From Candidatus Heimdallarchaeota archaeon (lineage in GTDB: Archaea > Asgardarchaeota > Heimdallarchaeia > Heimdallarchaeales > Heimdallarchaeaceae), in the NCBI GenBank assembly GCA_016840095.1, contig JAEOSZ010000111.1:77258-101257 (forward strand): a stretch of DNA of 24,000 nucleotides, in the 5' to 3' direction. The translations under genes and the position numbers were made by a program. The notes beneath the pieces were generated by a model that worked only from the letters and a program-made list of their open reading frames with translations, was not told where the DNA came from and searched no databases. This document shows, in pieces, positions 922 through 20,853 of the stretch (positions are counted from its first letter, which is position 1; every line of letters starts with the position of its first letter).

Positions 922-2094
922 ATGGCATCTGAAATTGAAATCATTGCATATTTTGAGACTCCAAGAGATCCATTGCCTTTAAGCTACATAGCTAAAGGAT
1001 TAGCAGGAGTTGAAACAATTATTGCTGCTATCAATCCAAGGGCAACTGAGGAAGTTATTCGAGGGATATTAAGATCAGCAAAGAAATCCAAGTCTGTAGT
1101 GATATTTGAATTAGCCTTAAGTGAAATGTCACTAAGTGGAGGATATACAGGATATACTCCCCAAAAATTCGCAGACCGATGTAAATCGGCAGCAGAAAAA
1201 GAAAAATGGTTTGCCTATTCTTTACATGCTGATCACCTTACATTGAAGAAAGGTACAGATGAAGAAATGGCATTTTTAATGATGGAAACTAAAGCCAGAA
1301 TTGAAGCAGGTTTTACAGGTTTTGCAATTGATACTTCTTTCCTCTTTAACAAAGAGGAAGTAACTGTAGCTGGACAATTGAGTGAAATTTTATCGAAGGG
1401 GCTCATTTTATTCCAATTTATCAAAGAGTTAATGGGAGAAAAACCTTATGGGCTTGAAGGCGAAGTTGGGGAAATAGGTATAGCTGATTTTACTTCTGTT
1501 GAAGAGGCAGTTCATTATGTTACAACTCTGATAAGAAGTGATATTTTCATTGATTATCTAGCAATAGCAAATGGGTCAACTCATGGAGTTAGTGTTGATG
1601 CTGAAGGAAAAGTCGTTCCACAACTGGGAATCAATGTTCAAAGAACAGTGGAGATTACTGAAGAATTTAAGAAATTGGGAATTGATACAAGAATTGCTCA
1701 ACATGGAATTACTGGTACTCCTGTTGAAGTCATAGCTTCAACTTTCCCTCATGGTAGCATAGCAAAAGGAAATATAGGCACATTCTGGCAAAGACTTGTT
1801 CAAGATGTACTTGCCAAATATGAACCTGAGCTTTATGGCAGAATAAAAAGTTGGGTTCTTGAAAAATATGGAAAACCGGATGTTGATGAACATAAAACCT
1901 TTGCAAAAAACTCTAAATATGCTTGGAAAGAATTCTTCAATGAAGTTGAGAATATTAGTGAAGAAGCTAAACAAGCTATAATCACACAAGCTGAAGCTGA
2001 TATGGATGAATTCATAAAAGCTTTAAAGATGGAAAATACAGCCAGTTATTGCATAAAATATATGGTTGATAACTTCCTCACAAATACATACTAA
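922..2094 (+). CDS. Class II (metal-dependent) fructose/ketose-bisphosphate aldolase family protein
   Basis: 390-aa ORF with an ATG start. The class II aldolase motifs appear in the expected order: LHADH (HxDH zinc/catalytic), FAIDTS, GLEGEVGEIG (E. coli FbaA has EIELG), IANGSTHGV (GNVHG), AQHGITGTP (HGGSG), KGNIGT (KMNIDT). Confidence 0.75.
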   Translation: MASEIEIIAYFETPRDPLPLSYIAKGLAGVETIIAAINPRATEEVIRGILRSAKKSKSVVIFELALSEMSLSGGYTGYTPQKFADRCKSAAEKEKWFAYSLHADHLTLKKGTDEEMAFLMMETKARIEAGFTGFAIDTSFLFNKEEVTVAGQLSEILSKGLILFQFIKELMGEKPYGLEGEVGEIGIADFTSVEEAVHYVTTLIRSDIFIDYLAIANGSTHGVSVDAEGKVVPQLGINVQRTVEITEEFKKLGIDTRIAQHGITGTPVEVIASTFPHGSIAKGNIGTFWQRLVQDVLAKYEPELYGRIKSWVLEKYGKPDVDEHKTFAKNSKYAWKEFFNEVENISEEAKQAIITQAEADMDEFIKALKMENTASYCIKYMVDNFLTNTY

Positions 2095-2104
2095 GGTCAG
2101 AAAA

Positions 2105-3022
2105 ATGTCTATATTGAAATATCACACACTTGAAGCGTACTTAGAAGATATACCAGAAGATGATCTCAGAGAACTAGTAAGAGAAATAATTGATATTAGT
2201 CTAGATGTACCAAAACAGATACTAACTTTTCTAATAGGAGAAAATGATTATTCAGGGATTATCAACATCTCTGGTGATGAACAATTAAGTCTAGATATCG
2301 CAACACAGGAATTATTCATGCAAAGAATTCCAAACAATCTCTATTCTCTATTGCTGGGTGAAGAGACAGATGAAAATAGCATAATGGAAGGAACAGGAAA
2401 CTTAATCGTTTTAGGTGATTTCATTGATGGTTCTTCCATTATTAGAACAAGGAGTCCTGGAGCAATAGTCAATATTATTGATCAAGAAGGTCATACTCAT
2501 GCAGCTTTAACAGTAAGCTTCACTTTGTTCTTGCGTTTTGATCTGGCCACAGAGTTGGGTTTCATTCAATTTATTTATGATGGAGAGAAGTTTCGAGTAA
2601 TTAGAGATGAACTAGATATCAGTCCAAGTAAAAGCCCTGTTTTTGGATTGGGTGGAAAATATAATGATCATTCTGCAAAACAAAAGCTATTCGTGGATGC
2701 TCTGGATATAAAAGGAAAGAACAGATATGGAGGATGTATGGTCCAAGACATGAATAATGTTTTTGAAAAAACTGGTGTCTTCGGATATTTTGCTCCAAAA
2801 CTTAGATTCTGCTATGAGATTATACCTTATCTTTATATCTTATCCAAAGTCAATGGAGATGGATTTTATATTACTGCAGATGGACATGAAATCAAATTCG
2901 AACGAATAAAACCATTAGATGTAAACAAACTTACCTCTATGCACTATCTGCATCAAAGAGCTGGTTTTGTTGGTGGATCTAAGGATTTAATAGAACTTTG
3001 GTTCAAAATAGAAGATCTCTAA
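2105..3022 (+). CDS. Divergent class I fructose-1,6-bisphosphatase-like phosphatase (FBPase/IMPase superfamily)
   Basis: The track ORF starts at a TTG at 2066 and overlaps the upstream gene. The ATG at 2105 (MSILKYHTLEAY) is the more plausible start. Motifs match class I FBPase: INISGDEQLSLDIATQELF (NVTGDQVKKLDVLSNDL), LLLGEETDE (acidic metal site), LGDFIDGSSII (DPLDGSSNI), RYGGCMVQDMNNVF...GVFGY (RYIGSMVADVHRTL..GGIFLY), KLRFCYEIIPYLYILSKVNG (KLRLLYEANPMAFLVEQAGG). Confidence 0.65.
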   Translation: MSILKYHTLEAYLEDIPEDDLRELVREIIDISLDVPKQILTFLIGENDYSGIINISGDEQLSLDIATQELFMQRIPNNLYSLLLGEETDENSIMEGTGNLIVLGDFIDGSSIIRTRSPGAIVNIIDQEGHTHAALTVSFTLFLRFDLATELGFIQFIYDGEKFRVIRDELDISPSKSPVFGLGGKYNDHSAKQKLFVDALDIKGKNRYGGCMVQDMNNVFEKTGVFGYFAPKLRFCYEIIPYLYILSKVNGDGFYITADGHEIKFERIKPLDVNKLTSMHYLHQRAGFVGGSKDLIELWFKIEDL

Positions 3023-3030
3023 AACCCATA

Positions 3031-3055
3031 TTTTCTTTTTATTTTATTATTTTTT
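3031..3055 (+). terminator. T-rich tract, a possible archaeal intrinsic terminator after the aldolase/FBPase-like pair
   Basis: ttttctttttattttattatttttt begins 9 nt after the TAA at 3020-3022. Oligo-T runs act as archaeal RNAP termination signals. No experimental support. Confidence 0.3.
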
Positions 3056-3125
3056 CAAGGTTCTTGAGTAAAACTTTTAATTAGGAAAATATAATATGTA
3101 TTAACGACCCGTATTATTTACTTAA

Positions 3126-4241
3126 ATGTTTAGGTGCGTGCATTTGGTTAAAACTACAATAAGTCTAATTAAAGCTGACATAGGATCAAGTCCTGGTCAT
3201 GTTACTGTTTATGAGCCTTTAATGGCTAGAGCGGAAGAACTAATGGAAACGGCTAAGGATGAAAATATCATTCTAGATTTCGTTGTGTTCAATGCTGGTG
3301 ATGATACTGAACTCCTTCTATCTCACATTAAAGGAGTTGATAATGAAGTTATACATAAGCTTGCTTGGGATACTTTTATGACGCTTGGTAATGAAGCAAG
3401 AGAAATTGGTCTTTATGGAGCGGGGCAAGATCTCTTGAAAGATACATTTTCAGGTAATATAAAGGGTATGGGACCTGGATGTGCTGAATTTGAGTTTGAG
3501 GAACGTCCAGCTGAACCTCTTTTAGTTTTTGCTATGGATAAAACTGAACCTGGTGCATTCAATTATCCTATATTTCAAATGTTTGCTAATCCGTTTAATA
3601 CTGCTGGATTAGTTATTGATCCAAATATGCATGATGGTTTTTCCTTCACTGTTATGGATGTTTATATTAGTAAATTCGTTGAATTAAGTTGTCCCGAACA
3701 AATGTATGACCTACTTGCATTAATTGGTGCGCCAGGAAAATATGTTGTCAAATATGTAGATAGCAAGAATTCAGACATCGGAAGAGCAGCAGCAATATCC
3801 ACAGATAAACTATCTTTAGTAGCAGGAAAGTATATCGGAAAAGATGATCCTGTTGCTGTGGTTAGAAGTCAAAGTGGATTTCCTGCAGTAGGTGAGATAG
3901 TTGAAGCATTTACTTTAGGACATCTAGTATCTGGTTGGATGCGAGGTTCTCATCGTGGTCCTCTCATGCCTGTACCTTTGGATTATAGTCAGTGTGTTAG
4001 ATTTGATGGCCCCCCTAGAGTGGTTGGATTAGGTTTTCAATTGAAAAATGGTATGTTTAAAGGAGGGGTGGATCTCTTTGATGATCCATCATTCGATCCT
4101 ACACGAGCAAGAGCAAATGAAATTGCTGAATACATGCGCCGTCATGGACCATTTGAACCTGGTCGTCTTCCTCTAAGTGAGATGGAATATACTACTTTGC
4201 CTGGAGTATTGAAAAAACTTGAAGATAAATTTCATGATTAG
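3126..4241 (+). CDS. fbp: Bifunctional fructose-1,6-bisphosphate aldolase/phosphatase (archaeal type V FBPase)
   Basis: Near full-length similarity to the remembered Sulfolobus FBPA/P sequence: KTTISLIKADIGS, LYGAGQDLLKDTFSGNIKGMGPG, DKTEPGAFNYPIFQMFANPFNTAGLVIDP, GKYIGKDDPV, GWMRGSHRGPLMPV, RFDGPPRVVGLGFQLKNG, DLFDDPSFD, YMRRHGPFEP, EMEYTTLP. The true start could be the in-frame TTG at 3144, which gives MVKTTIS, the typical family N-terminus. Confidence 0.9.
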   Translation: MFRCVHLVKTTISLIKADIGSSPGHVTVYEPLMARAEELMETAKDENIILDFVVFNAGDDTELLLSHIKGVDNEVIHKLAWDTFMTLGNEAREIGLYGAGQDLLKDTFSGNIKGMGPGCAEFEFEERPAEPLLVFAMDKTEPGAFNYPIFQMFANPFNTAGLVIDPNMHDGFSFTVMDVYISKFVELSCPEQMYDLLALIGAPGKYVVKYVDSKNSDIGRAAAISTDKLSLVAGKYIGKDDPVAVVRSQSGFPAVGEIVEAFTLGHLVSGWMRGSHRGPLMPVPLDYSQCVRFDGPPRVVGLGFQLKNGMFKGGVDLFDDPSFDPTRARANEIAEYMRRHGPFEPGRLPLSEMEYTTLPGVLKKLEDKFHD

Positions 4242-6156: not shown

Positions 6157-6894
6157 ATGCACATTGCTATAGTTTATCTTCTAGTTTTTATTAGCTCATA
6201 TGTTATAGGTTCTATTCCATTTAGCTGGATAATTACTAAAATTAAAACTGGAGAAGATTTGAGAAAAATAGGTTCAGGAAACGTAGGAGGAAGAAATGTT
6301 TATCGAGCTACTAAATCTAGAAACTGGGCATTGTTTGCTGGTTTCTTAGATATCTGCAGATCTTTAACAGCTGTAGCATTAACATTTTATCTTTCAAATA
6401 TATTATATTTCAAAAATCACTCGAAGTATAATTTACCTATAACTGGTTTCTTTCCAGATACTGCTCTTGCATTTAGTCTTACTATAGCTGGAGTTGGGGC
6501 AATTCTTGGACATAATTGGTCTCTATATCTTCTTCCTGGTCACGGTGGTAGAGGTATTACTGTAGTTCTTGCTTCAATGTTGTATGCTAATCCAATAATG
6601 ATTGCATTTTGGATTGTATTATGGCCAATTGTGATAACCATAGTTGGTTATTCCTCAATTACTTACATTGTTACTACAGCTTTGGTTGGAGTTATAGCGT
6701 TATTTTTCCCAGTAGTAATGCCTTGGGTTCCTTATAATTTGGCAATTGCACTTATTCTATTTAGCATATCACTCGTTATGATTAGCCGACAAAGGGACAA
6801 CATTAGGAAGATTAGAACCGGTGAAGCTAAGAAAATGAAAATCTGGAAGGCAGTTTTTGGGAAAAAGAAGATGTCAGATGAGATTCTTAAATAA
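6157..6894 (+). CDS. PlsY-family (DUF205 / glycerol-3-phosphate acyltransferase-like) polytopic membrane protein
   Basis: 245 aa with multiple hydrophobic spans. Motifs in PlsY order: GSIPFSWIITKIKTGEDLRKIGSGNVGGRN (bacterial consensus GSIP...D.R..GSGN.GATN), GFLDICRS (D..KG), GAILGHNWSLYLLPGHGGRGI (GH.fP.f..fkGGKG), RQRDNIRKIRTGEAKK (HR.NI.Rl..G.E). Confidence 0.7.
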   Translation: MHIAIVYLLVFISSYVIGSIPFSWIITKIKTGEDLRKIGSGNVGGRNVYRATKSRNWALFAGFLDICRSLTAVALTFYLSNILYFKNHSKYNLPITGFFPDTALAFSLTIAGVGAILGHNWSLYLLPGHGGRGITVVLASMLYANPIMIAFWIVLWPIVITIVGYSSITYIVTTALVGVIALFFPVVMPWVPYNLAIALILFSISLVMISRQRDNIRKIRTGEAKKMKIWKAVFGKKKMSDEILK

Positions 6895-8771: not shown

Positions 8772-9122
8772 CTATCCAGTTATTCTGATGGATAGTACTC
8801 CTCTTTTATCTTTGATTACTGAAACTGCTTCATTTGGAGCAACTATCGTAAATCCTTTGTTTTTGGTTCCTTTACCAAAAAGCTTAGCCCATTTAAAGTC
8901 TTCTCCATTCTCGAATGAGAACATCTTGACACCAACAAAGTTTTTGTAATCAATTTTATTCATGGTTCTTTCAATAAGATTGAGCTCCTCAGTGTGAGAG
9001 AGCCCATCCTCTAGAATCAATATGCTATTCCTCATCACTTTAGATAAGATGTAACTGATTTTTTCTTCACTTGAAAGATCATCCGTTTCTGTATATGGAA
9101 TAAAATCTACTCTATACTTCAT
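8772..9122 (-). CDS. DUF2073-like small protein, the conserved archaeal partner of the upstream GTPase
   Basis: The ATG at 9122 is preceded by an SD-like AAGGTGA. A GTG at 9131 overlapping the GTPase stop (GTGA) is the alternative start. The assignment rests on my recollection that DUF2073 proteins follow this GTPase in archaea, and on size (about 116 aa). It has not been verified by search. Confidence 0.5.
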   Translation of the reverse strand: MKYRVDFIPYTETDDLSSEEKISYILSKVMRNSILILEDGLSHTEELNLIERTMNKIDYKNFVGVKMFSFENGEDFKWAKLFGKGTKNKGFTIVAPNEAVSVIKDKRGVLSIRITG

Positions 9123-9127
9123 CCTTT

Positions 9128-9742
9128 TCACCTTACCTTCTTAGCCATTTCGGCTATTTTATTATACAATTGCTCTATGCCATCACCCTGTAACGCAGAA
9201 ACAGGGATAACATGGTAGTCACAAAAAGCATTTTTGATTTCAACTATATCAGCATCAGGTAGATCAATCTTATTTGGAACTAAGATGAAAGGTTTCTTCT
9301 GATGTTCCAAGTTACCAATTATCGTAAAGTTTACCTGATCAAAAGGTGATTTTGCAGCATCTATCACAACGAGTGCTACATCCACATTTTCTAGAAACTT
9401 AATTGCCTCCACTATTCCTCTTGTTGCTTCTTTAGCTCTTTGCATCGCTTCTCCTGCAGAAAGTCCATGCTTCATGAATTCTTTTGGATTTACAGAGGAT
9501 GCTATACCAGGCATATCTATTAGCGTAAGATCTAGAGATGTTCCATTTGAAGAGAAGTTAACCTTCTCAAGCTTCTGAATTGTTCTAGTCTCGTGTGGAA
9601 TTTCACTGACAGTTCCAACTTCTTGCTCAGCCCAATCTATTCCAATTTTGTTTGCAAGAGTGGTTTTACCAGCATTTACTTCACCGTAGAACCCCAAATT
9701 TATTGATTTTGGCTTTGATTTCAGCCACAATCTCCATGACAA
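9128..9742 (-). CDS. Small GTP-binding protein (Era/EngB-like TRAFAC GTPase; resembles the haloarchaeal OapA type)
   Basis: G1 GEVNAGKTT, G3 DMPG, G4 NKID and G5 SAL appear in the correct order. There is no in-frame ATG near the N-terminus. The start is a TTG at 9742 or 9730. Confidence 0.8.
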   Translation of the reverse strand: MSWRLWLKSKPKSINLGFYGEVNAGKTTLANKIGIDWAEQEVGTVSEIPHETRTIQKLEKVNFSSNGTSLDLTLIDMPGIASSVNPKEFMKHGLSAGEAMQRAKEATRGIVEAIKFLENVDVALVVIDAAKSPFDQVNFTIIGNLEHQKKPFILVPNKIDLPDADIVEIKNAFCDYHVIPVSALQGDGIEQLYNKIAEMAKKVR

Positions 9743-11029: not shown

Positions 11030-12196
11030 TTACAAGCAAACCATATCTTTTGGGGTATTTGATAATCGAATTACACCATCTTTAGTAACAACACAATCAT
11101 CTTCTAAACGAATACCAAAATCTCCAGCAAAGTATAAACCAGGTTCTACAGTTATTACAGAGTTTTCAAGTAATTCTTTAGCAGGTCTTTCTGGATAAGC
11201 TCTATAAATACCCACTCCGATATCATGTGTCTCAATACCAATTGGGTGACCTGTTGAGTGAATATACAACTTCTCATGATCATATCCATATTCTTCAAAC
11301 TTATCTCGAACTGCCATTTCTACATCATGAGAAGAAACTCCTGCTCTAATTTTTGTGTATGCAGCTTCTTTTGCTTCATGTACAGCTTCATGTGCTCTAA
11401 GAACTTCTTCTTTTGGTTTGTTACCTATCCAATATGTGTGAGTAATGTCTGAATTAGACATCTCGTAGGCTACTCCATAATCAATTAAAAGCACTTGATT
11501 TTTCTCTATCTTCCCTGTTCCTGCTTTATGGTGAGGTATAGCTGCATTTGGTCCTGATGCTACAATGGGCTCAAAAGCTACTCCCCCTCTTTTGTTACAT
11601 TCAAATTCTATTATAGCTGCTAATTCTTTTTCAATCATACCAGGTTTGATTAAAGGTTCAATAACCTCTTCCATCAATTCTTCAGCTAGCTTAGCAGCAA
11701 TTTTGTGGTTCTCAATTTCCTTTTGTGTTTTAACAGCTCTTACATCAAAAATGATATCTTTAGCAGAAACATAATTTAGATTTTTGTTCATACTAGTTAA
11801 CGCATTAAAAGTTCCACTGGTTAATATATCAGAACTAAATTTTGAAAATACTTCACTAGCCTCAACGTAATTTAATGCAACTGTGGATTTATCTAAGAAA
11901 CCATTGAATAAATTCTGTACTAGCTCTGTTAATTCACTACCTTTTTTGTATGCTTTGACTTCGTAAATTTCTTCATCTACTAGCATTGCTTCCATCTGAG
12001 ATGTTATAACTGATGGTTTTCCTCTCTTAGGAATCAGAGTCAAAGTTGGTGATGCAAACCATTTTTCTAGTAAATATTTTTGGTGTATATCGTATGAATG
12101 GTGGCAAAATACTATCCATCCATCTACATTATGATTGTCTAAAACTGCTTGAATTCTATCAATTTTTTCACTCAAAATCCACACATTCCTTAACAA
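11030..12196 (-). CDS. M24-family Xaa-Pro aminopeptidase/dipeptidase
   Basis: The pita-bread metal ligands are in order: LIDYGVAYEMSNSDITHTY (D, D), HSTGHPIGIETHD (H), VEPGLY (E), IRLEDD (E). The start is uncertain: TTG at 12196, GTG at 12184 or TTG at 12175. All three overlap the cofC stop at 12168-12170. Confidence 0.85.
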   Translation of the reverse strand: MLRNVWILSEKIDRIQAVLDNHNVDGWIVFCHHSYDIHQKYLLEKWFASPTLTLIPKRGKPSVITSQMEAMLVDEEIYEVKAYKKGSELTELVQNLFNGFLDKSTVALNYVEASEVFSKFSSDILTSGTFNALTSMNKNLNYVSAKDIIFDVRAVKTQKEIENHKIAAKLAEELMEEVIEPLIKPGMIEKELAAIIEFECNKRGGVAFEPIVASGPNAAIPHHKAGTGKIEKNQVLLIDYGVAYEMSNSDITHTYWIGNKPKEEVLRAHEAVHEAKEAAYTKIRAGVSSHDVEMAVRDKFEEYGYDHEKLYIHSTGHPIGIETHDIGVGIYRAYPERPAKELLENSVITVEPGLYFAGDFGIRLEDDCVVTKDGVIRLSNTPKDMVCL

Positions 12197-12788
12197 TTTG
12201 TTTAATGTTATCCGGTAAATAATCGTTCTTTTCTAAATCTATTAAATCTTTAAATTTGTCTATATCACTGTATGCGTTTTTACTTTCTAAAATCTCAAAT
12301 GATAATTCAAGTTTCTCAAATACATCTCTAAATCTTAAAGCAGAGTTCTTACCAAAAACTAATGGGAAAGTGTCTCCTTTATTGAAAATCAAAATACTAG
12401 TTCCATTGTCCTTAGTAGGTCCAAGTAGTATTTTCCTCTCATTATAATTCTTATCAAGAATAAATTGTAAATCTTCGGATTTAATTAAAGGTAGATCTGC
12501 CATAACAACAGTAATTATATCTTCTTGAATCTCCTTGAAGGCTTCATTTAATGATTCATTTAATTCATCCCCCTTGTCATGAAGTATAGAGAAATATCCT
12601 GAAAAATCTAATTTTTTCTTTTTTGTAAGGATATACAAATTTGCATCATGTTCAAGTTTAGCAATTTCATCTATTAGATTCTGAGTCATATGATGAAGCA
12701 GTTTTTCAACCGATGAATCTTTTAAACTGGATCGTAATCTACTCTTATCGTTTATTGTTCCTCTGTATGGTATTATTATTGCTTTCAT
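12168..12788 (-). CDS. cofC: 2-phospho-L-lactate (or PEP) guanylyltransferase, F420 biosynthesis
   Basis: MKAIIIPYRGTINDKSRL matches the CofC N-terminus (M..iIPv....KSRL). LNESLNEAFKEIQEDIITVVMADLPLIKSEDLQFIL aligns with remembered M. jannaschii CofC LNNAIKQAFEEIEDEEVIIIPADIPLIKKEDIEEIL. Confidence 0.7.
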   Translation of the reverse strand: MKAIIIPYRGTINDKSRLRSSLKDSSVEKLLHHMTQNLIDEIAKLEHDANLYILTKKKKLDFSGYFSILHDKGDELNESLNEAFKEIQEDIITVVMADLPLIKSEDLQFILDKNYNERKILLGPTKDNGTSILIFNKGDTFPLVFGKNSALRFRDVFEKLELSFEILESKNAYSDIDKFKDLIDLEKNDYLPDNIKQIVKECVDFE

Positions 12789-13578
12789 CAGCTATTCTTC
12801 CAGTATAATCTGATACTAAATATTGCATAAATTCTGGGTTTTGCATTAGTGGTCTAGCAACAGAAGCTGCTTTTGCTCCTGCTTTTAGCATTGTATGAAT
12901 GTCATTTATTGTTCGAACTGAGTTATTTCCTATTATTGGGATATCCGTTAATTCTACAAATTTTCTAATTATTTTAATGTTAGCTCTTTTTTGACCTGGT
13001 AACATAGCATCAACATGAATGTAGGAAATAGAATAATCTTCCAAAATCTTTGTTAGACCAGAATAATCACCAATAATATGTCCTCGAATTTTTATTCCTA
13101 GGGGAAAAGAGGGTAATAGTTTTCTTATCGAATCAAGCAGAGTTTCAAGTTTTTCAGGTTTTAAAAGTAAATTATGCCCACCATTAATTTTTAGAATCTC
13201 TTCTTGTCTACAATGAGCATTAATTTCTACAATATCAACAAACTTTGTGACTTCATTTAGCCATACTTCAGAAAAATAATCTGCATTTATGAGTCGCACA
13301 TTGAAACTAACTAGTTGATGATTAGTCTGTTTCTCTAAATTTAGGTTTTCTAAACACCATGATTTAACTTGATCAACTTTGAATTGGAGGAGGAATTCAT
13401 CTCTACCTCTTTCTATCATTCTTGTTGTGGTTAGATGTGATTCACGGTCTATTGAAAATCCTCCTAGTGTTACCATTCCTGCTCCATAATTTAGAATCTT
13501 TTGGCAAAAAGCTCCATCTGAAATTCCTGCTATAGCTGATTGAACAATTGGTGGTATAAATCTAGGATTTGCACTCAA
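12745..13578 (-). CDS. DUS-like (NifR3/dihydrouridine-synthase-related) FMN-type TIM-barrel oxidoreductase lacking a C-terminal helical domain
   Basis: Collinear with Dus motifs: SAIAGISDGAFCQKILNYGAGMVTLGGFS (LAPMAGVTD..FR.....GAGL...EM), VEINAHCRQEEI (IDIN.GCP), LGIKIRG (KxR), IHVDAML (HGRT), IPIIGNNSVRTINDIHTMLKAGAKAASVARPLMQNP (IPVIANGDI.s.eDa......GaDgVMiGRgal.nP). It is only 277 aa. It starts at a TTG at 13578, 8 nt downstream of an SD-like AGGGGGT. Confidence 0.6.
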   Translation of the reverse strand: MSANPRFIPPIVQSAIAGISDGAFCQKILNYGAGMVTLGGFSIDRESHLTTTRMIERGRDEFLLQFKVDQVKSWCLENLNLEKQTNHQLVSFNVRLINADYFSEVWLNEVTKFVDIVEINAHCRQEEILKINGGHNLLLKPEKLETLLDSIRKLLPSFPLGIKIRGHIIGDYSGLTKILEDYSISYIHVDAMLPGQKRANIKIIRKFVELTDIPIIGNNSVRTINDIHTMLKAGAKAASVARPLMQNPEFMQYLVSDYTGRIADESNNNTIQRNNKR

Positions 13579-13584
13579 GATAGT

Positions 13585-14511
13585 TTACCCCCTATTTAGG
13601 ATAAATGATGCTAGATTTTTTGATATACCTTTTTCATTGAATAAGATATTCTGTGTTATTACTTCTAAGTTTGTTTCATTTTCTATATCTTTCCTGAAAT
13701 TTCCGTCCGATTCATGAATAATTATTGTGGAACAAACATCTTTGTAGAGCCTAGCAATACCTAAAGGAGATACCTCAAGTCCTTTTGCTTTCATCAGATT
13801 TTCTGTTGGTCCGCTTATTGGCTTATCCCCTATAATTGGACTGATAGCTATACATTTACTCTTATTCTTTTCGAGTGTTTCTCTTATTGCGGATACATCT
13901 AATATTGGTCCTATGCTGGTTATGGGATTACTTGGGCCTATAATTATTGTATCAGAGTTAACCAATTCTTCTTGTGCAGAACGAGAAAAAATAGCATTTT
14001 CCACATTTCTTACATAGATATTCTTTATTTCTGTTTCTCCTTTATGTTTAACCCAAAATTCCTGGAAGTGAATATCTTCATCGTTGTTTGTAACTATACG
14101 CGTTTCAATGTGGTTTTCTGAACTTGGATAGATTTTACTTCTTATTCCTAACTTGTTTATTAAAGAATTAATTATTGAAGACTGGTTCTTTCCGTTCTGC
14201 ATTTCAAATGTTCTGAAAATATGCAAACCTAAATCTTTGTCTCCTAATCTGAACCATGTATCTATTCCATATCTGTTTAGAGCATTTAATGTATTGAAGG
14301 ATTCATCCTTTACGCCCCAATATTTTTCAACATCTAGTAATTCACTGAAAAGATAGAGTATTGTGTCGATATCTGGTGAAACATATAATCCATAGATCCA
14401 GATATTATCAGCTGAATTTGCAATAATAGCTAGTTTATCATCATTAATAATTTCTCTGAATCCTTGTATTAGTTTAGGGGTTCCTGTTCCTCCAGATAGG
14501 AAAGTAATCAT
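13585..14511 (-). CDS. cofD: LPPG:FO 2-phospho-L-lactate transferase, F420 biosynthesis
   Basis: 308 aa. The N-terminus MITFLSGGTGTPKLIQGF matches the CofD signature (vLSGGTGtpKLl.Gl). Also has the later IIGPSNPITSIGPIL and ISPIIG motifs. Confidence 0.85.
   Translation of the reverse strand: MITFLSGGTGTPKLIQGFREIINDDKLAIIANSADNIWIYGLYVSPDIDTILYLFSELLDVEKYWGVKDESFNTLNALNRYGIDTWFRLGDKDLGLHIFRTFEMQNGKNQSSIINSLINKLGIRSKIYPSSENHIETRIVTNNDEDIHFQEFWVKHKGETEIKNIYVRNVENAIFSRSAQEELVNSDTIIIGPSNPITSIGPILDVSAIRETLEKNKSKCIAISPIIGDKPISGPTENLMKAKGLEVSPLGIARLYKDVCSTIIIHESDGNFRKDIENETNLEVITQNILFNEKGISKNLASFILNRG
13587..13593 (-). promoter_or_regulatory. Shine-Dalgarno-like element (AGGGGGT) preceding the TTG start of the DUS-like gene
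   Basis: The minus-strand sequence reads AATAGGGGGTAAACTATCTTG. The purine-rich element overlaps the cofD TAA stop and is spaced 8 nt from the TTG at 13578. This fits translational coupling. Confidence 0.35.
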
Positions 14512-14539
14512 TTTGAACCCTCAAATCTTGAAAAATACC

Positions 14540-15490
14540 TTATTTTTTAGCTGTCTTCTTTGCAGTTGTTGTCTTCTTTGCAGTTGTTGTCTTCTTTGCA
14601 GTTGTTGTCTTCTTTGCAGTTGTTGTCTTCTTTGCAGTTGTTGTCTTCTTTGCTGCTGTAGTTTTTGGTTTAGCTGTAGTTTTTGTTGCTGTTGTCTTCT
14701 TTGCAGTTGTTGTCTTCTTTGCTGCTGCTGTCTTTGGTTTAGCTGTAGTTTTTGTTGCTGTTTTAGCTTTAGTCTCTGGTTTTGTCTCCTCTTTTTGTTT
14801 TTCTGGAGTTTCCTTAGGTTTTACTGGTGCAGTTTTCTTTGGTAGTTTTTTCTTGGGAGTTCCTGTTTCCACCAATCGTAATCTAGAAGTTGATTTTATT
14901 ACAACTCTATAGTAGGAACCATTTTCTCCCATATCTGGGTTTCGAACGATTTTGATAACATCACCAGGTTTTGCTTGTATTGCTTTTACTGCAGCATCAG
15001 TTTCTAGTATCTTTGGTATTTGATGTTTCTGAATCTGATATCTTTCCAAGAATCCTTTTATGTCTCTAGTTCTGAGCTTAACATGCTGACGAACTAGTTG
15101 ATGCTCAAAGATATTAAACAATGGATTAGTGCTACTAATAATTTCAATTCCTAATTTTACAGATTCCTTTTTTGCATAATGTGTTAATGGGGATTCTGCA
15201 ATTAGTAAGGCTTCATCTAGTTCCTCTTCTTCTTGTAATTTACCTAGAAGTCTGATTAATTTCACACCAATTTGAGGATTTTTTGGGAATCGTGCAATAG
15301 CTGTTACTGTTTCTTTTTCCTCACTAAGCTTCTTAGCATATACATCTAGAAAATCATCGTCTTCTTTTGTATCACTAATCTTAAATCCTCTAAACTCAAG
15401 AATTTCCTTAACTCCATCCACAATCCTCTTTTCCTTGGCTTTTTGTTCCTTAGAAGACAAGTAAGTTACCTCGGCATCCTTAATAATCAA
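14540..15490 (-). CDS. rpoH: RNA polymerase subunit Rpb5/RpoH homologue with three parts: Rpb5-N-like domain (aa 1-125), RpoH/Rpb5-C core (aa 126-198), and a Lys/Thr/Ala/Pro tandem-repeat tail (aa 199-316)
   Basis: The core NIFEHQLVRQHVKLRTRDIKGFLERYQIQKHQIPKILETDAAVKAIQAKPGDVIKIVRNPDMGENGSYYRVV matches the RpoH/Rpb5-C consensus (HxLVPxH..l..eE...LL..Y.i...QLP.I...DPva...g.k.GdVvKI.R.S.taG....YR.V). See findings for the N-terminal similarity. The start is a TTG at 15490. There is no in-frame ATG in the first 180 codons, so the exact start is uncertain. Confidence 0.8.
   Translation of the reverse strand: MIIKDAEVTYLSSKEQKAKEKRIVDGVKEILEFRGFKISDTKEDDDFLDVYAKKLSEEKETVTAIARFPKNPQIGVKLIRLLGKLQEEEELDEALLIAESPLTHYAKKESVKLGIEIISSTNPLFNIFEHQLVRQHVKLRTRDIKGFLERYQIQKHQIPKILETDAAVKAIQAKPGDVIKIVRNPDMGENGSYYRVVIKSTSRLRLVETGTPKKKLPKKTAPVKPKETPEKQKEETKPETKAKTATKTTAKPKTAAAKKTTTAKKTTATKTTAKPKTTAAKKTTTAKKTTTAKKTTTAKKTTTAKKTTTAKKTAKK
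14549..14771. repeat. Coding tandem repeat: 18-bp unit GCAGTTGTTGTCTTCTTT in 5 perfect head-to-tail copies, nested in a 68-69-bp higher-order duplication
   Basis: Perfect copies lie at 14562-14579, 14580-14597, 14598-14615, 14616-14633 and 14634-14651, with a sixth at 14703-14720. Block 14634-14702 is repeated with a few changes at 14703-14770. On the minus strand this encodes (KKTTTA)n. Confidence 0.9.
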
Positions 15491-15537
15491 ATTAATTAAA
15501 ATCTTTTGACAAGTGAGAGGTTTTAATTAAGTCTATT

Positions 15538-15888
15538 TCATTCTTCTTCTGTTTGAAATTTGATGTAATAAGAACCATCTTTATTTCGACTTATAATTGG
15601 TTTAGTGTCACCATTTTCTGTAAGTAATTTTTCTATATCTACTTCAAAAATTCCTTCACTTGTAAGTCTGATTGCTTCTAGTCCATCTTTTATATCAGTT
15701 TGATGAATCTCTTTCTCGACAATAAGATCAAGTTCTTCCTCTTTCTTCTGGTCAGTAGATCTTTCCTTATAGGTTTTGAATTTAAATGACCCACAATGTG
15801 GGCATCCATTAAGTAGAATTTGACTGTTCAATTCAAGTTCTTGTTCGCATAATGCACAAATTGTGATTTTATTAGATGGATTTGACAT
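15538..15888 (-). CDS. Zn-ribbon protein, DUF2072-like (resembles the haloarchaeal OapC type)
   Basis: The N-terminal ribbon CALCEQEL...CPHCGS is followed by an acidic linker and a conserved-looking C-terminal domain (GLEAIRLTSEGIFEVDIEKLL...GSYYIKF). ATG at 15888; the track uses the ATG at 15900. The family name is from memory only. Confidence 0.5.
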   Translation of the reverse strand: MSNPSNKITICALCEQELELNSQILLNGCPHCGSFKFKTYKERSTDQKKEEELDLIVEKEIHQTDIKDGLEAIRLTSEGIFEVDIEKLLTENGDTKPIISRNKDGSYYIKFQTEEE

Positions 15889-15916
15889 ATAATCACACAT
15901 TCTTCTTGTTTATCAT

Positions 15917-16821: not shown

Positions 16822-19089
16822 TTAAGAAAGAAAAGTTAGCTGTTTTAGAACGTTAAATAATTCATCGATTGGAAGCTTCTGTAATTTCTCATTTTCTCTT
16901 GTTTTTCTGTCTAATTCTTTAAGCAAAATACTGAACTCGTAGGCTGATTTAGATAATTGTGCAAATGTTGAATCATATTGAGCAATTGATTGTAAATGAT
17001 CACTAGCATCCTTTGCTGCCTTAGCACCATCGTTAAAGTGAGAAGCAGCTTTGTAATTTTCCTTATTTGTATTTGCACCAATTCCGAAAATTGCTTTTTT
17101 GGTTGCTTCAAGAAAATCAGTTAGAGCTAGCGATAGAATCTTCTTAATTTCTATTGCACCCCAATTAATATTTGAATCTTGTAAATTAAACATCTCCTTG
17201 TGATTCAACAACTCCAAACAATTTTCTGCAATTCGTTTGTTGATTATATCAAATAGTGCAAAATGATTGAAATTATGGTTGATTATGGCAAAATAATTTT
17301 CCTTGATAGAATCTTCTCCAGAAAGAGATAATCTATATCCTTTGGCAATTTTATCGATTACTGTATTCAAAAACAAATATTGTCTTGATAGTTCAAACAA
17401 CCGCAATTCTACATCTTGTCCTTGAATAAATGTTTGACTATACCTGTGCTCTACCCACTCTTTATCAATAATTGATTCACTACTGAGTTGAGATATTTCA
17501 AGAGCCTTTGTAGAGTAATAATGAGCTTTTGCATGATATATTATATCCAAAACTTCGTTTGATTCTTTTTCTGCAAGATTTTGTTCTAAATACATAGAAT
17601 TAGCTAAAAACTCCAAACACTCTATGTCTTTTACAATGTAAACTTTCTTTTCTGTTTTAGGAAGAAAGTATGCAGAAATTTTTACTGTTCCTATATTCTC
17701 TAACAGAGGTTGGATATCATCAAGTTTTATTTTAGTATCTGCTTTCTCTATTTCTATTAATTGTGTAGAAATATCATTGATTGCATATTCCAGTCTTTCA
17801 ATAAAACGAACAAGATTCTGTTCTGCTTTTTTCATTGCTTCAGAGAGAGGAGTATCTTCAAGAAGAGCAATTTTAAGTTCTTGAACAAAATTAAGATAAA
17901 CAAAGGGGAGACTACTAACATAGTTGATATTTACTTTCAGATCTGGTCTGTTAACAATTTCTTCAATTTCTTCAACAATACCTTGGATATTTTCCTTTTT
18001 GTTATCTGTTATAGTACTGTTCAACAAAGAGGTTTTAGCAGCCAGTTCTGCAATTCCATGAAAGAAGCTATGTACTGTTTGATCTTTCTTTATACCTTCT
18101 TTCAGAGCTAAGGTCCTTTCGGTCATTTCTACATTAGAATCTAAGATTGTTAGTGCCTCTCCTTCAAGTCCCAAAACTAAGTTCAAGTACTCTACACTTG
18201 CAATAAAACTATTACTTTTAGCTGCTTCAAAGCTCAATCTTAAATAATGATCTATAAGTTCCTTGTTTCTTTGAGCTTGGTTTAAAGAGATGTGGCTAGT
18301 TTCAATTTCTTTTCCTTTTAATTCTGGATCTTCAGGAATTTGCTTATAATAATCTAGTGCGGTTTCAAGGTGACTTAAGCTTCTCTCAAATGCAAAATGA
18401 GTGGCTACTGAATCTTTCCACCACCAATCTTCTCCTAATCGTTTTAGAAATTGTGCAGTGAATGATACATCAAATTCTGCCATAATTAGTTCATAAGCAC
18501 CTTTTTCCTCAATTAATTTCTCTTCACTATAACCGTTTGGTGATTCTTCTAGTAGATGAATAATCTGTTGTTTTTGATTAAGCAAAAGGAAAGTTAGCAT
18601 CACTTCTTCAATATTTGAAGCTCTTGGATGAGAGGAGTCAAAATAGGTTTGTGAAATAGTGTTGAGTATTCTATATCCTTCGATATATGCAGTACAATAT
18701 TCAGGTGATGGTTGAGTTCCAAAAATTCCTGTATTTACAATATCTGCATAAATGATCATTAGAATTGCTAGTTCCATTTGAAACTCTTGTAAATCTTCTA
18801 ATTTTTGAGTAATTATGCCTTTTCTCTCCTCATCTGCATCTATTTGTACTCTGTCTCTTGTCCATTCATCCAGAAAACGACTATAGAGAAGATGAGATAA
18901 TGAAGAAACATTCGAAAGAGTATCAGCACAGAATCGCGAAAAATCTAACCAAACTTGACTAATTTCATCCAAATCATCAATTTGTACAAAAGATTGGTAA
19001 ATTCTTTCACGTTCTAATTCCATTAATACAAACTGCTTGAATGGTGAATCACTAAGTAGCTTGACTATCTCTTTCGAAAATAACATCAT
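16822..19089 (-). CDS. Large (755 aa) predicted all-alpha-helical protein of unknown function
   Basis: Uninterrupted 2.27-kb ORF with an ATGATG start, in the same orientation as its flanking genes. I recognise no catalytic, nucleotide-binding, transmembrane or signal motifs. The composition (high L/E/K/I/N with regular helix-favouring spacing) suggests a helical-repeat or coiled-coil architecture. Confidence 0.7.
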   Translation of the reverse strand: MMLFSKEIVKLLSDSPFKQFVLMELERERIYQSFVQIDDLDEISQVWLDFSRFCADTLSNVSSLSHLLYSRFLDEWTRDRVQIDADEERKGIITQKLEDLQEFQMELAILMIIYADIVNTGIFGTQPSPEYCTAYIEGYRILNTISQTYFDSSHPRASNIEEVMLTFLLLNQKQQIIHLLEESPNGYSEEKLIEEKGAYELIMAEFDVSFTAQFLKRLGEDWWWKDSVATHFAFERSLSHLETALDYYKQIPEDPELKGKEIETSHISLNQAQRNKELIDHYLRLSFEAAKSNSFIASVEYLNLVLGLEGEALTILDSNVEMTERTLALKEGIKKDQTVHSFFHGIAELAAKTSLLNSTITDNKKENIQGIVEEIEEIVNRPDLKVNINYVSSLPFVYLNFVQELKIALLEDTPLSEAMKKAEQNLVRFIERLEYAINDISTQLIEIEKADTKIKLDDIQPLLENIGTVKISAYFLPKTEKKVYIVKDIECLEFLANSMYLEQNLAEKESNEVLDIIYHAKAHYYSTKALEISQLSSESIIDKEWVEHRYSQTFIQGQDVELRLFELSRQYLFLNTVIDKIAKGYRLSLSGEDSIKENYFAIINHNFNHFALFDIINKRIAENCLELLNHKEMFNLQDSNINWGAIEIKKILSLALTDFLEATKKAIFGIGANTNKENYKAASHFNDGAKAAKDASDHLQSIAQYDSTFAQLSKSAYEFSILLKELDRKTRENEKLQKLPIDELFNVLKQLTFLS

Positions 19090-20776: not shown

Positions 20777-20853
20777 GATCCCGTAGCTCAGTTGGATAGA
20801 GCGTTTGCCTCCTAAGCAAATGGTCGTGCGTTCGAATCGCATCGGGATCGCCA
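20777..20853 (+). tRNA. tRNA-Arg (anticodon CCU), genomically encoded 3' CCA, no intron
   Basis: Hand-folded cloverleaf. Acceptor GATCCCG/CGGGATC (7 bp). D-arm GCTC-AGTTGGATA-GAGC. Anticodon arm TTTGC-CTCCTAA-GCAAA (anticodon CCT). Variable loop TGGTC. T-arm GTGCG-TTCGAAT-CGCAT. Discriminator G, then CCA at 20851-20853. Confidence 0.9.

Follow-up and report, generated by a model that had tools for sequence, protein, structure and literature searches.

A probable long archaeal RNA polymerase subunit H with an N-terminal domain homologous to the jaw of eukaryotic Rpb5

In every archaeal and eukaryotic RNA polymerase (RNAP) of solved structure, the Rpb5_C/RpoH domain docks on the largest subunit, and in eukaryotes the jaw of Rpb5 lines the downstream-DNA channel. 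Reviews and domain catalogues equate archaeal Rpo5 (RpoH, subunit H) with the C-terminal third of Rpb5 only. Here we describe a gene for a long RpoH in a stretch of 24,000 nucleotides (the window) from a Candidatus Heimdallarchaeota archaeon (assembly GCA_016840095.1, contig JAEOSZ010000111.1, positions 77,258 to 101,257). Its product is probably the RNAP subunit H of this archaeon of the Heimdallarchaeia group, extended to three parts: a domain homologous to the Rpb5 jaw precedes the RpoH domain and a basic tail follows it.

Two archaeal subunits, Rpo5 and Rpo13, have been assigned the contacts with downstream DNA (PMC7289017), and in the RNAP of Sulfolobales the DNA-binding subunit Rpo13 adjoins Rpo5 (PMC13257274). 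The jaw of eukaryotic Rpb5 has been described as a target of TFIIB, TFIIF/RAP30 and HBx (PMC13257274). A census of PD-(D/E)XK domains lists the N-terminal domain of Rpb5, Rpb5_N, as found in Eukaryota only (PMC3424549). In a 2026 study of the small subunits of archaeal RNAP, this domain likewise figured as a eukaryotic feature only, and the Rpo5 proteins of Bathyarchaeota and Asgard archaea were modelled without remark on any extension (PMC13257274). An Rpb5_N-like domain of archaea was not described in any of the full texts searched, a set that lacks most subscription papers and did not extend to supplementary files.

Domain architecture and kinship of the N-terminal domain

The gene and its product have the following parts, with residues counted from the listed start codon.

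14540 to 15490, minus strand: open reading frame (ORF) as listed, a long RpoH/Rpo5 homologue of 316 amino acids (aa) with a TTG start (ORF list and domain matches).
14540 to 15460, minus strand: likelier coding sequence, 306 aa from the TTG at codon 11, beginning MSSKEQ (start conservation and database homologues).
15119 to 15460, minus strand: N-terminal domain, residues 11-124, a most likely inactivated Mrr-type PD-(D/E)XK fold and homologue of the Rpb5 jaw (models, profiles, hhalign and codon changes).
14897 to 15118, minus strand: RpoH/Rpb5_C domain, residues 125-198 (Pfam PF01191, NCBIfam RpoH and archaeal Rpo5 matches).
14543 to 14890, minus strand: basic low-complexity tail, residues 201-316, (AKKTTT)n (composition and low model confidence from residue 202).

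The first-pass annotation of the window had recognized an RpoH/Rpb5-C core at residues 126-198, and the domain searches bore this out. Pfam RNA_pol_Rpb5_C (PF01191) matched residues 125-197 over the whole model (1-73 of 73) with E=1.6e-21 and 76.3 bits (cut-off 23.5). The conserved Rpb5_C motifs are retained in the window protein, and its C-domain fully matches the subunits of Pyrococcus, Thermococcus, Sulfolobus and Methanocaldococcus. It is nearer to archaeal RpoH (99 bits over 75 residues with Thermococcus) than to the C-terminal part of human RPB5 (about 73 bits). Several relatives of 73-80% identity carry the PGAP name 'DNA-directed RNA polymerase subunit H'.

The residues that precede the core had been aligned by eye with eukaryotic Rpb5, and the protein had been taken for a full-length Rpb5. 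When the whole protein was compared by phmmer with the sequences in the PDB, the best matches were eukaryotic RPB5 chains (E about 8e-16). Residues 62-196 aligned with residues 70-208 of human RPB5 and residues 40-196 with residues 46-203 of Arabidopsis NRPB5, while archaeal Rpo5 chains aligned from residue 124 onward only. HMMER reproduced all three of the alignments made by eye: within the alignment with human RPB5, FPKNPQIGVKLIRLLGKLQEEEELDEALLIAESPLTHYAKK pairs with a human segment of 41 letters and IEIISSTNPLFNIFEHQLV pairs with LEQFLQQELLINITEHELV, and in the profile and hhalign alignments VKEILEFRGF pairs with IMQLCHDRGY. Because the C-domain could drag an alignment upstream, the N-terminal 126 residues were searched alone. 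Human RPB5 was again the best match, with residues 63-114 collinear with 71-122 (E=0.0025). A profile of 18 Heimdall N-domains reached E=5.9e-7 against the PDB, with RPB5 in all of the top eight places and no nuclease listed, and a broader profile, of 27 diverse N-domains from archaea, reached E=4.8e-10, its top 11 matches all being RPB5, that of yeast included.

The full-length architecture was upheld as well, since positions 2-188 of the full-length family profile aligned with residues 2-205 of Arabidopsis NRPB5 (E=2e-27), N- and C-domains being collinear. Comparison by hhalign of the archaeal N-domain with eukaryotic Rpb5_N gave a score of 84, a probability of 98.4% and E=7e-15. In both proteins the last strand of the N-domain (IEII in the window protein, LEQF in human Rpb5) lies at the same distance from the HxLVPxH motif, and their alignment crosses the junction of the two domains without a gap. 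The equal length of the linker and the ungapped junction favour a single ancestral fusion. These sequence comparisons showed that the N-domain is homologous to, and collinear with, the lower-jaw domain of eukaryotic Rpb5.

The N-domain was modelled alone with AlphaFold2 and a family alignment, with a predicted local distance difference test score (pLDDT) of 86 and a predicted template modelling score of 0.77; its topology is alpha-beta-beta-beta-alpha-beta-alpha-beta. In the two-domain model the pLDDT was 78-95 over residues 21-120, below 50 in the linker (123-128) and below 50 from residue 202. When the two-domain model was compared with known structures by Foldseek, 35 RPB5 chains, eukaryotic and from African swine fever virus, came first (200-215 columns, E about 1e-12), and archaeal RpoH chains ranked after them with about 75 columns only. 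With the N-domain alone, RPB5 chains were superposed over about 79 columns at 2.0-2.5 Å, and nucleases matched as well. The predicted fold is thus consistent with the Rpb5 jaw, but it does not separate the jaw from nucleases. Structure alone was rejected as a discriminator, the N-domain model fitting NucS/EndoMS as well as RPB5.

Several results weigh against a simple equation of this domain with the eukaryotic jaw. Even at E≤10, Pfam RNA_pol_Rpb5_N (PF03871) was not matched by the window protein, for which reason the homology was shown by family profiles and hhalign; of the two Pfam models proposed as a check on the 316-aa protein, only Rpb5_C (E=1.6e-21) was found. Rpb5_N was reached by 6 of 27 archaeal relatives, all of them sub-threshold (E≤1, best 3e-5), and P0067 scored 17.1 bits against a cut-off of 27. 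In the hhalign alignment the archaeal profile has a gap of about 16-20 columns where the eukaryotic insertion follows helix 1, before the first strand. The archaeal nuclease EndoMS/NucS is the top Foldseek match of the N-domain (109 columns, E=2.6e-4), a rank that is to be expected because Rpb5_N itself is classed as a family of the PD-(D/E)XK fold (PMC3424549). The orientation of the domains in the two-domain model differs from that in solved Rpb5, with a global template modelling score of about 0.45 and a root-mean-square deviation of about 12 Å, values that in this model probably reflect the flexible linker. Finally, hhalign of the archaeal N-domain against Mrr-type nucleases gave a score of 107 (probability 99.2%, E=2e-19), a figure inflated by the choice of the Mrr set from matches of the Heimdall profile. 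The same nucleases compared with eukaryotic Rpb5_N gave a score of 52 (probability 95.6%, E=1e-8).

The Mrr kinship is also apparent in Pfam. On the N-domain alone, Mrr_cat (PF04471) scored 23.4-23.7 bits against a gathering score of 21; in the full-length protein it scored 19.9 bits, under the cut-off. NA-iREase1 ('inactive REase') gave a weak match to the N-domain of the window protein. Scanned member by member, 26 of 27 archaeal N-domains matched Mrr_cat and 25 matched NA-iREase1, the latter being matched by many relatives as well as or better than the former. Because the hhalign scores run 107 (archaeal with Mrr), 84 (archaeal with eukaryotic) and 52 (eukaryotic with Mrr), the archaeal N-domain appears as an intermediate between Mrr nucleases and the eukaryotic jaw. 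An exhaustive search with the Heimdall N-profile over 1.84 billion representatives returned, in this order, archaeal two-domain proteins (E 1e-24 to 1e-4), eukaryotic Rpb5 (best E=1.3e-7) and genuine Mrr nucleases with DGGxD...QCKR motifs (best E=4e-5).

These data bear on the possibility that RpoH and an Mrr domain were fused in archaea independently of the event that gave eukaryotic Rpb5, in which case the N-domains would be kin at the superfamily level only and uninformative about the origin of the jaw. Such a convergence is suggested by the frequency of Mrr_cat (26/27) and NA-iREase1 (25/27) matches against that of Rpb5_N (6/27), by the higher hhalign score with Mrr (107) than with eukaryotic Rpb5_N (84), by the nuclease at the head of the Foldseek matches, by the absence of the eukaryotic insertion and by a patchy spread over Bathyarchaeia and Heimdall groups. 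Nonetheless, we consider it improbable. The order of the domains and the length of the linker are identical, with no gap at the junction, and by hhalign score eukaryotic Rpb5_N is more similar to the N-domain of archaeal Rpo5 (84) than to Mrr nucleases (52). Furthermore, RPB5 is the top and essentially the sole significant PDB sequence match of the N-domain profiles, and eukaryotic Rpb5 stands above Mrr nucleases in the exhaustive search, though the Mrr family is far larger.

In the window protein A64-I65-A66 takes the place of the (E/Q)xK motif of the nucleases, and across the family A66 is nearly invariant. Because of this replacement, and of the near invariance of Ala at the position of Lys, the N-domain is most likely catalytically dead. 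The opposite proposal, that it is a functional Mrr-type endonuclease anchored to the polymerase or to DNA and serving, for example, defence or transcription-coupled cleavage, could draw on the Mrr_cat score of the isolated domain (23.4 against 21 bits), on the conserved acidic residue D49 at the position of the metal-binding Asp and on an N-domain fragment of a relative (P0147) that NCBI names 'restriction endonuclease'. It was rejected as very improbable owing to the loss of the (E/Q)xK motif; in addition, NA-iREase1 fits many relatives as well as or better than Mrr_cat, and the eukaryotic homologue, Rpb5_N, is structural and has no catalytic function (PMC3424549). The first-pass annotation had called the N-domain a eukaryote-type Rpb5 domain. 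The homology stands (hhalign 98.4%), but the term does not: the protein fails Pfam Rpb5_N, the insertion is absent and the domain is nearer to Mrr. To judge from its sequence, it is better described as an inactive domain of the Mrr type with kinship to the jaw.

Reading frame, promoter and repeat tail

Codon changes between the window gene and related loci, taken from a comparison set of eight such loci, were counted separately for the two domains. The ratios of synonymous to non-synonymous changes were 44:13, 34:7 and 47:22 in the N-domain and 20:12, 21:8 and 36:16 in the C-domain, so that the synonymous excess of the N-domain is equal to or larger than that of the C-domain. These results indicated that the N-domain is translated and under purifying selection. 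A start of translation near residue 120, named in the first-pass annotation as what would speak against a long protein, is ruled out by these ratios, changes in the N-domain being mostly synonymous.

The exact start lies probably ten codons downstream of the listed one. The first TTG (15490) is replaced by CTG or CGG in 6 of 8 related loci, while the TTG of codon 11 (15460-15458) is kept in all nine sequences, the window gene and the eight related loci. MVSKEQ or MSSKEQ is the N-terminus of many database homologues, and a Shine-Dalgarno-like GAGGT is found 7 nt 5' of the conserved TTG. On account of this universal conservation, which the first TTG does not share, and of the GAGGT at 7 nt, the true product is probably the protein of 306 aa that starts with MSSKEQ, and the residue numbers of the first-pass annotation would be about 10 too high. 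Upstream of the gene, in the intergenic region, a block was found whose core, TCACTT.TCAAAAGATTTTAA, is invariant in six aligned loci, including that of a 77%-identical relative (L011). It ends 6 nt 5' of the first TTG. Read as a B recognition element (BRE) and TATA promoter, as its sequence suggests, the block would put the start of transcription downstream of the first TTG. The elements are the following.

15468 to 15472, minus strand: Shine-Dalgarno-like GAGGT, 7 nt 5' of the conserved TTG, kept in 5 of 6 aligned loci.
15496 to 15524, minus strand: promoter-like conserved block AAAACCTCTCACTTGTCAAAAGATTTTAA, from the aligned relatives, with a putative BRE/TATA.

The G+C content of the window is 31-36%. 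A scan of this archaeal window for promoters of the bacterial sigma-70 type and for terminators was uninformative.

Residues 201-316, for which the first-pass annotation had given no account, form a hypervariable basic repeat tail. Its composition is 33% Thr, 31% Lys, 16% Ala and 7% Pro, with an isoelectric point (pI) of 10.8, and searched alone it matched no Pfam family. Among 36 aligned homologues the tail is net basic in 31 (65-166 aa), net acidic in four and absent in one, with strong variation in its length and repeat unit. It is limited to the Heimdall family, in which two relatives have a precomputed match to Pfam HC2 (PF07382). The DNA that encodes it is itself repetitive.

14552 to 14762, no strand assigned: tandem repeat coding for the tail, an 18-bp unit in 10.3 copies or, alternatively, a 69-bp unit in 3 copies.

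A Cys/Leu/Ser-rich ORF of 110 aa on the plus strand (14513-14845) was dismissed as a gene, being the antisense reading of this repeat. In the close homologue P0004 a Gln/Asn/His-rich tail (QNQKQHQVRQPQ repeats) stands in place of the K/T/A tail; judged by its sequence, it looks like a frameshifted reading of a similar DNA repeat, by sequencing error or by real frame-switching.

Distribution, variants and genomic neighbourhood

The closest public relatives are all from metagenome bins labelled Candidatus Heimdallarchaeota or Heimdallarchaeaceae, the best genome match being AB_125 with 92% identity, and at least 50 Heimdall clusters show very strong conservation. When the alignment of diverse N-domains was used as the query, 394 clusters were recovered, which are mostly proteins of about 182 aa composed of the N-domain and Rpb5_C. 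The named members of this two-domain set are Candidatus Bathyarchaeota, one of them on a complete genome of 1.5 Mb; further two-domain clusters carry the labels Heimdallarchaeota, Hodarchaeales and, in one case, Thorarchaeota. The idea that this architecture is an Asgard signature was therefore not borne out, and its wide occurrence in Bathyarchaeia also means that it is no synapomorphy of Heimdall archaea and eukaryotes.

The number of N-domains is not constant. Bins labelled Heimdallarchaeota contain Rpo5 variants of 436-498 aa (P0067, P0068/P0298, P0081, P0090 and P0097) in which two or three tandem dead Mrr/jaw domains, joined by Lys-rich linkers, precede one Rpb5_C; P0067 has 481 aa and P0298 has 498 aa. 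In five other proteins (P0075, P0080, P0086, P0098 and P0111) the N-domain is combined with a Cys-rich, zinc-ribbon-like module rich in CxxC and there is no Rpb5_C. From their sequences, these proteins may represent stand-alone relatives of the jaw.

The annotation of these proteins is uneven. Several clusters of the two-domain set bear a eukaryotic name as their JGI label, 'RNA polymerase I, II, and III subunit RPABC1'. The NCBI protein P0287, a 91-aa 'RNA polymerase subunit H' of Bathyarchaeia, is identical to residues 99-189 of the 189-aa protein P0079, a comparison that identifies it as a clipped gene call of the long form with its start set at an internal Met. Short RpoH annotations in Bathyarchaeia-type lineages may then be artefacts. 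Clipping of this kind, together with the name 'restriction endonuclease' given by annotation pipelines, helps explain why the N-domain went unnoticed. The long form is a real, under-recognized variant of a known subunit, with sequences that are public and in part automatically annotated.

In the window, long rpoH is a stand-alone gene, flanked by an OapC-like zinc-ribbon gene on one side and a CofD-like gene on the other. The 77%-identical relative keeps this arrangement, and a distant relative does so in part. The neighbours upstream are OapC-like and BpsA_C-like genes, and those downstream are CofD, Dus-like, CofC and M24 genes. Genes for restriction-modification or defence were not found near long rpoH in the window.

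The head of an rpoH-rpoB-rpoA cluster is the typical position of rpoH in non-Asgard archaea. Two points weigh against the assignment of the long protein as a polymerase subunit: rpoB and rpoA are not adjacent to any of the seven long-form genes examined, and the NCBIfam RpoH equivalog (NF007129) scored 79.2 bits, narrowly under its cut-off of 83. What the sequences and models establish is the identity of the domains, their homology and fold, the loss of catalytic residues, purifying selection and the spread over lineages; incorporation into RNAP, the position at the jaw and the role of the tail are inferred. Since none of the seven lineages has the long form in an rpoH-rpoB-rpoA operon, genomic position supports neither side. 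The lack of linkage to rpoB and rpoA is itself unremarkable, because in Asgard genomes a stand-alone rpoH is normal and the conserved cluster has rpoA1 as its first gene or is scattered (PMC10833476).

It could be argued from these points that the long protein is a paralogue, with a short canonical RpoH serving the core RNAP and the long form belonging to an alternative form of RNAP or acting off the polymerase as a DNA-binding protein. Plant NRPB5, NRPD5 and NRPE5, paralogues that define alternative RNAP forms, would be a model. The isolation of all seven long forms from rpoB and rpoA and the sub-threshold equivalog score agree with this proposal, as does the Bathyarchaeota Rpo5 modelled in the 2026 study, whose accession number is two away from that of Rpo1 (PMC13257274) and which suggests an operon-encoded rpoH in at least some Bathyarchaeia. 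However, the C-domain spans the whole Rpb5_C model with its conserved motifs, Asgard genomes generally have no rpoH-rpoB linkage and no short Heimdall RpoH was present among 52 homologues, in a search of limited sensitivity. The very strong conservation across at least 50 Heimdall clusters, and the fact that at least one annotated 'short' RpoH is a clipped call of the long form, also speak for the long protein as the regular subunit H, and a paralogue seems to us unlikely.

Other genes of the window were recorded alongside. CofD-like, Dus-like TIM-barrel and CofC-like genes follow rpoH on the same strand (window 12168-14511, minus strand; L011 7922-10279; L014 4651-7014), and the order rpoH-CofD-Dus-CofC, which links rpoH to genes for F420-type cofactors, is kept in the 77%-identical relative and in the distant two-domain homologue P0082. 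The OapC-like zinc-ribbon gene (15538-15900, minus strand) is directly upstream of rpoH. An OapB-like gene (8772-9131, minus strand) lies about 6 kb from rpoH beside GTPase and AAA_18 genes, a set also present in L011; as homologues of origin-associated proteins, the OapB- and OapC-like genes may hint at a nearby replication origin. At 16822-19089 (minus strand) there is a protein of 755 aa with no Pfam match, whose length (754 aa) and position are kept in the Heimdall relative L011. A glycerol-3-phosphate acyltransferase of the PlsY type, which belongs to bacterial-type lipid synthesis, is encoded at 6157-6894 (plus strand). Class II aldolase-like, class I-type FBPase-like and archaeal FBPase_3 (E=1.5e-168) genes lie in tandem at 922-4241 (plus strand), so that two types of FBPase are adjacent in this gluconeogenic trio. 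The only tRNA of the window is tRNA-Arg(CCT) at 20777-20853 (plus strand).

Proposed role and comparison with known systems

By homology, residues 125-198 would anchor the subunit on the largest subunit of RNAP. Residues 11-124 would then form an extension of the lower jaw alongside the channel for downstream DNA and could provide a surface for contacts with DNA or factors, like the jaw of Rpb5 in Pol I, II and III. The disordered polycationic tail (201-316) may bind nucleic acid non-specifically near the polymerase, in the manner of the C-terminal tail of histone H1 or of Rpo13, and it appears to evolve fast through expansion of the tandem repeat.

With regard to origin, we tentatively propose that the Rpb5 jaw goes back to the capture of an inactivated Mrr domain by RpoH in archaea, that the archaeal form survives as the intermediate in the polymerases of Heimdall-group archaea and Bathyarchaeia, that eukaryotes inherited it vertically and let it diverge further and that Heimdall archaea elaborated it; this scenario is a possible one, with the odds slightly short of even. 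If it is true, the Heimdall elaborations comprise up to three tandem jaws and a disordered tail built from repeats, and peripheral modules of a eukaryote-like kind were already being tried out in archaeal RNAPs. One more 'eukaryotic' feature of RNAP would be shifted back into archaea, and the jaw would have a concrete origin in a domesticated, inactivated Mrr domain. A homologous and more nuclease-like domain is already present on hundreds of archaeal Rpo5 proteins, and these offer tractable material for probing the function of the jaw. The basic repeat tail and the variants with several jaws reveal an unexpected plasticity of a core polymerase subunit. Two things limit the significance: the architecture is shared with Bathyarchaeia, and the evidence for membership of the polymerase is indirect.

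The canonical archaeal RpoH/Rpo5 (about 75-90 aa; HAMAP, NCBIfam PRK09570) aligns fully with the C-domain of the window protein, which differs from it in about 114 extra folded N-terminal residues, in the C-terminal tail and in its location outside an rpoH-rpoB-rpoA operon. Mrr_cat/NA-iREase1 domains, the best Pfam match of the N-domain (hhalign 99.2%), share with it the same alpha-beta-beta-beta-alpha-beta core; unlike them, the window domain lost (E/Q)xK, is fused to an RNAP subunit and has no defence genes nearby. The Rpo13 of the Sulfolobales RNAP, a small protein that lies beside Rpo5 and contacts double-stranded downstream DNA, is a possible functional analogue, although it is a separate polypeptide with no kinship in sequence or fold. 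The tail resembles the C-terminal domain of histone H1 and HC2-type tails in being a repetitive polycation rich in K, A, P and T; it differs from them in its lack of a Pfam match and its unusually high content of Thr (33%), and also in being acidic in four aligned relatives and absent in one. From eukaryotic Rpb5/RPABC1, a subunit common to Pol I, II and III, the window protein is set apart by its escape from Pfam Rpb5_N, the absence of the roughly 16-20 residues that eukaryotes have inserted after helix 1, the extra basic tail of 116 aa and a C-domain nearer to archaeal RpoH. Nonetheless, the two share the order of their domains, an end-to-end collinear profile, the length of the linker and a homologous N-terminal fold derived from PD-(D/E)XK, in which both have lost the nuclease motif.

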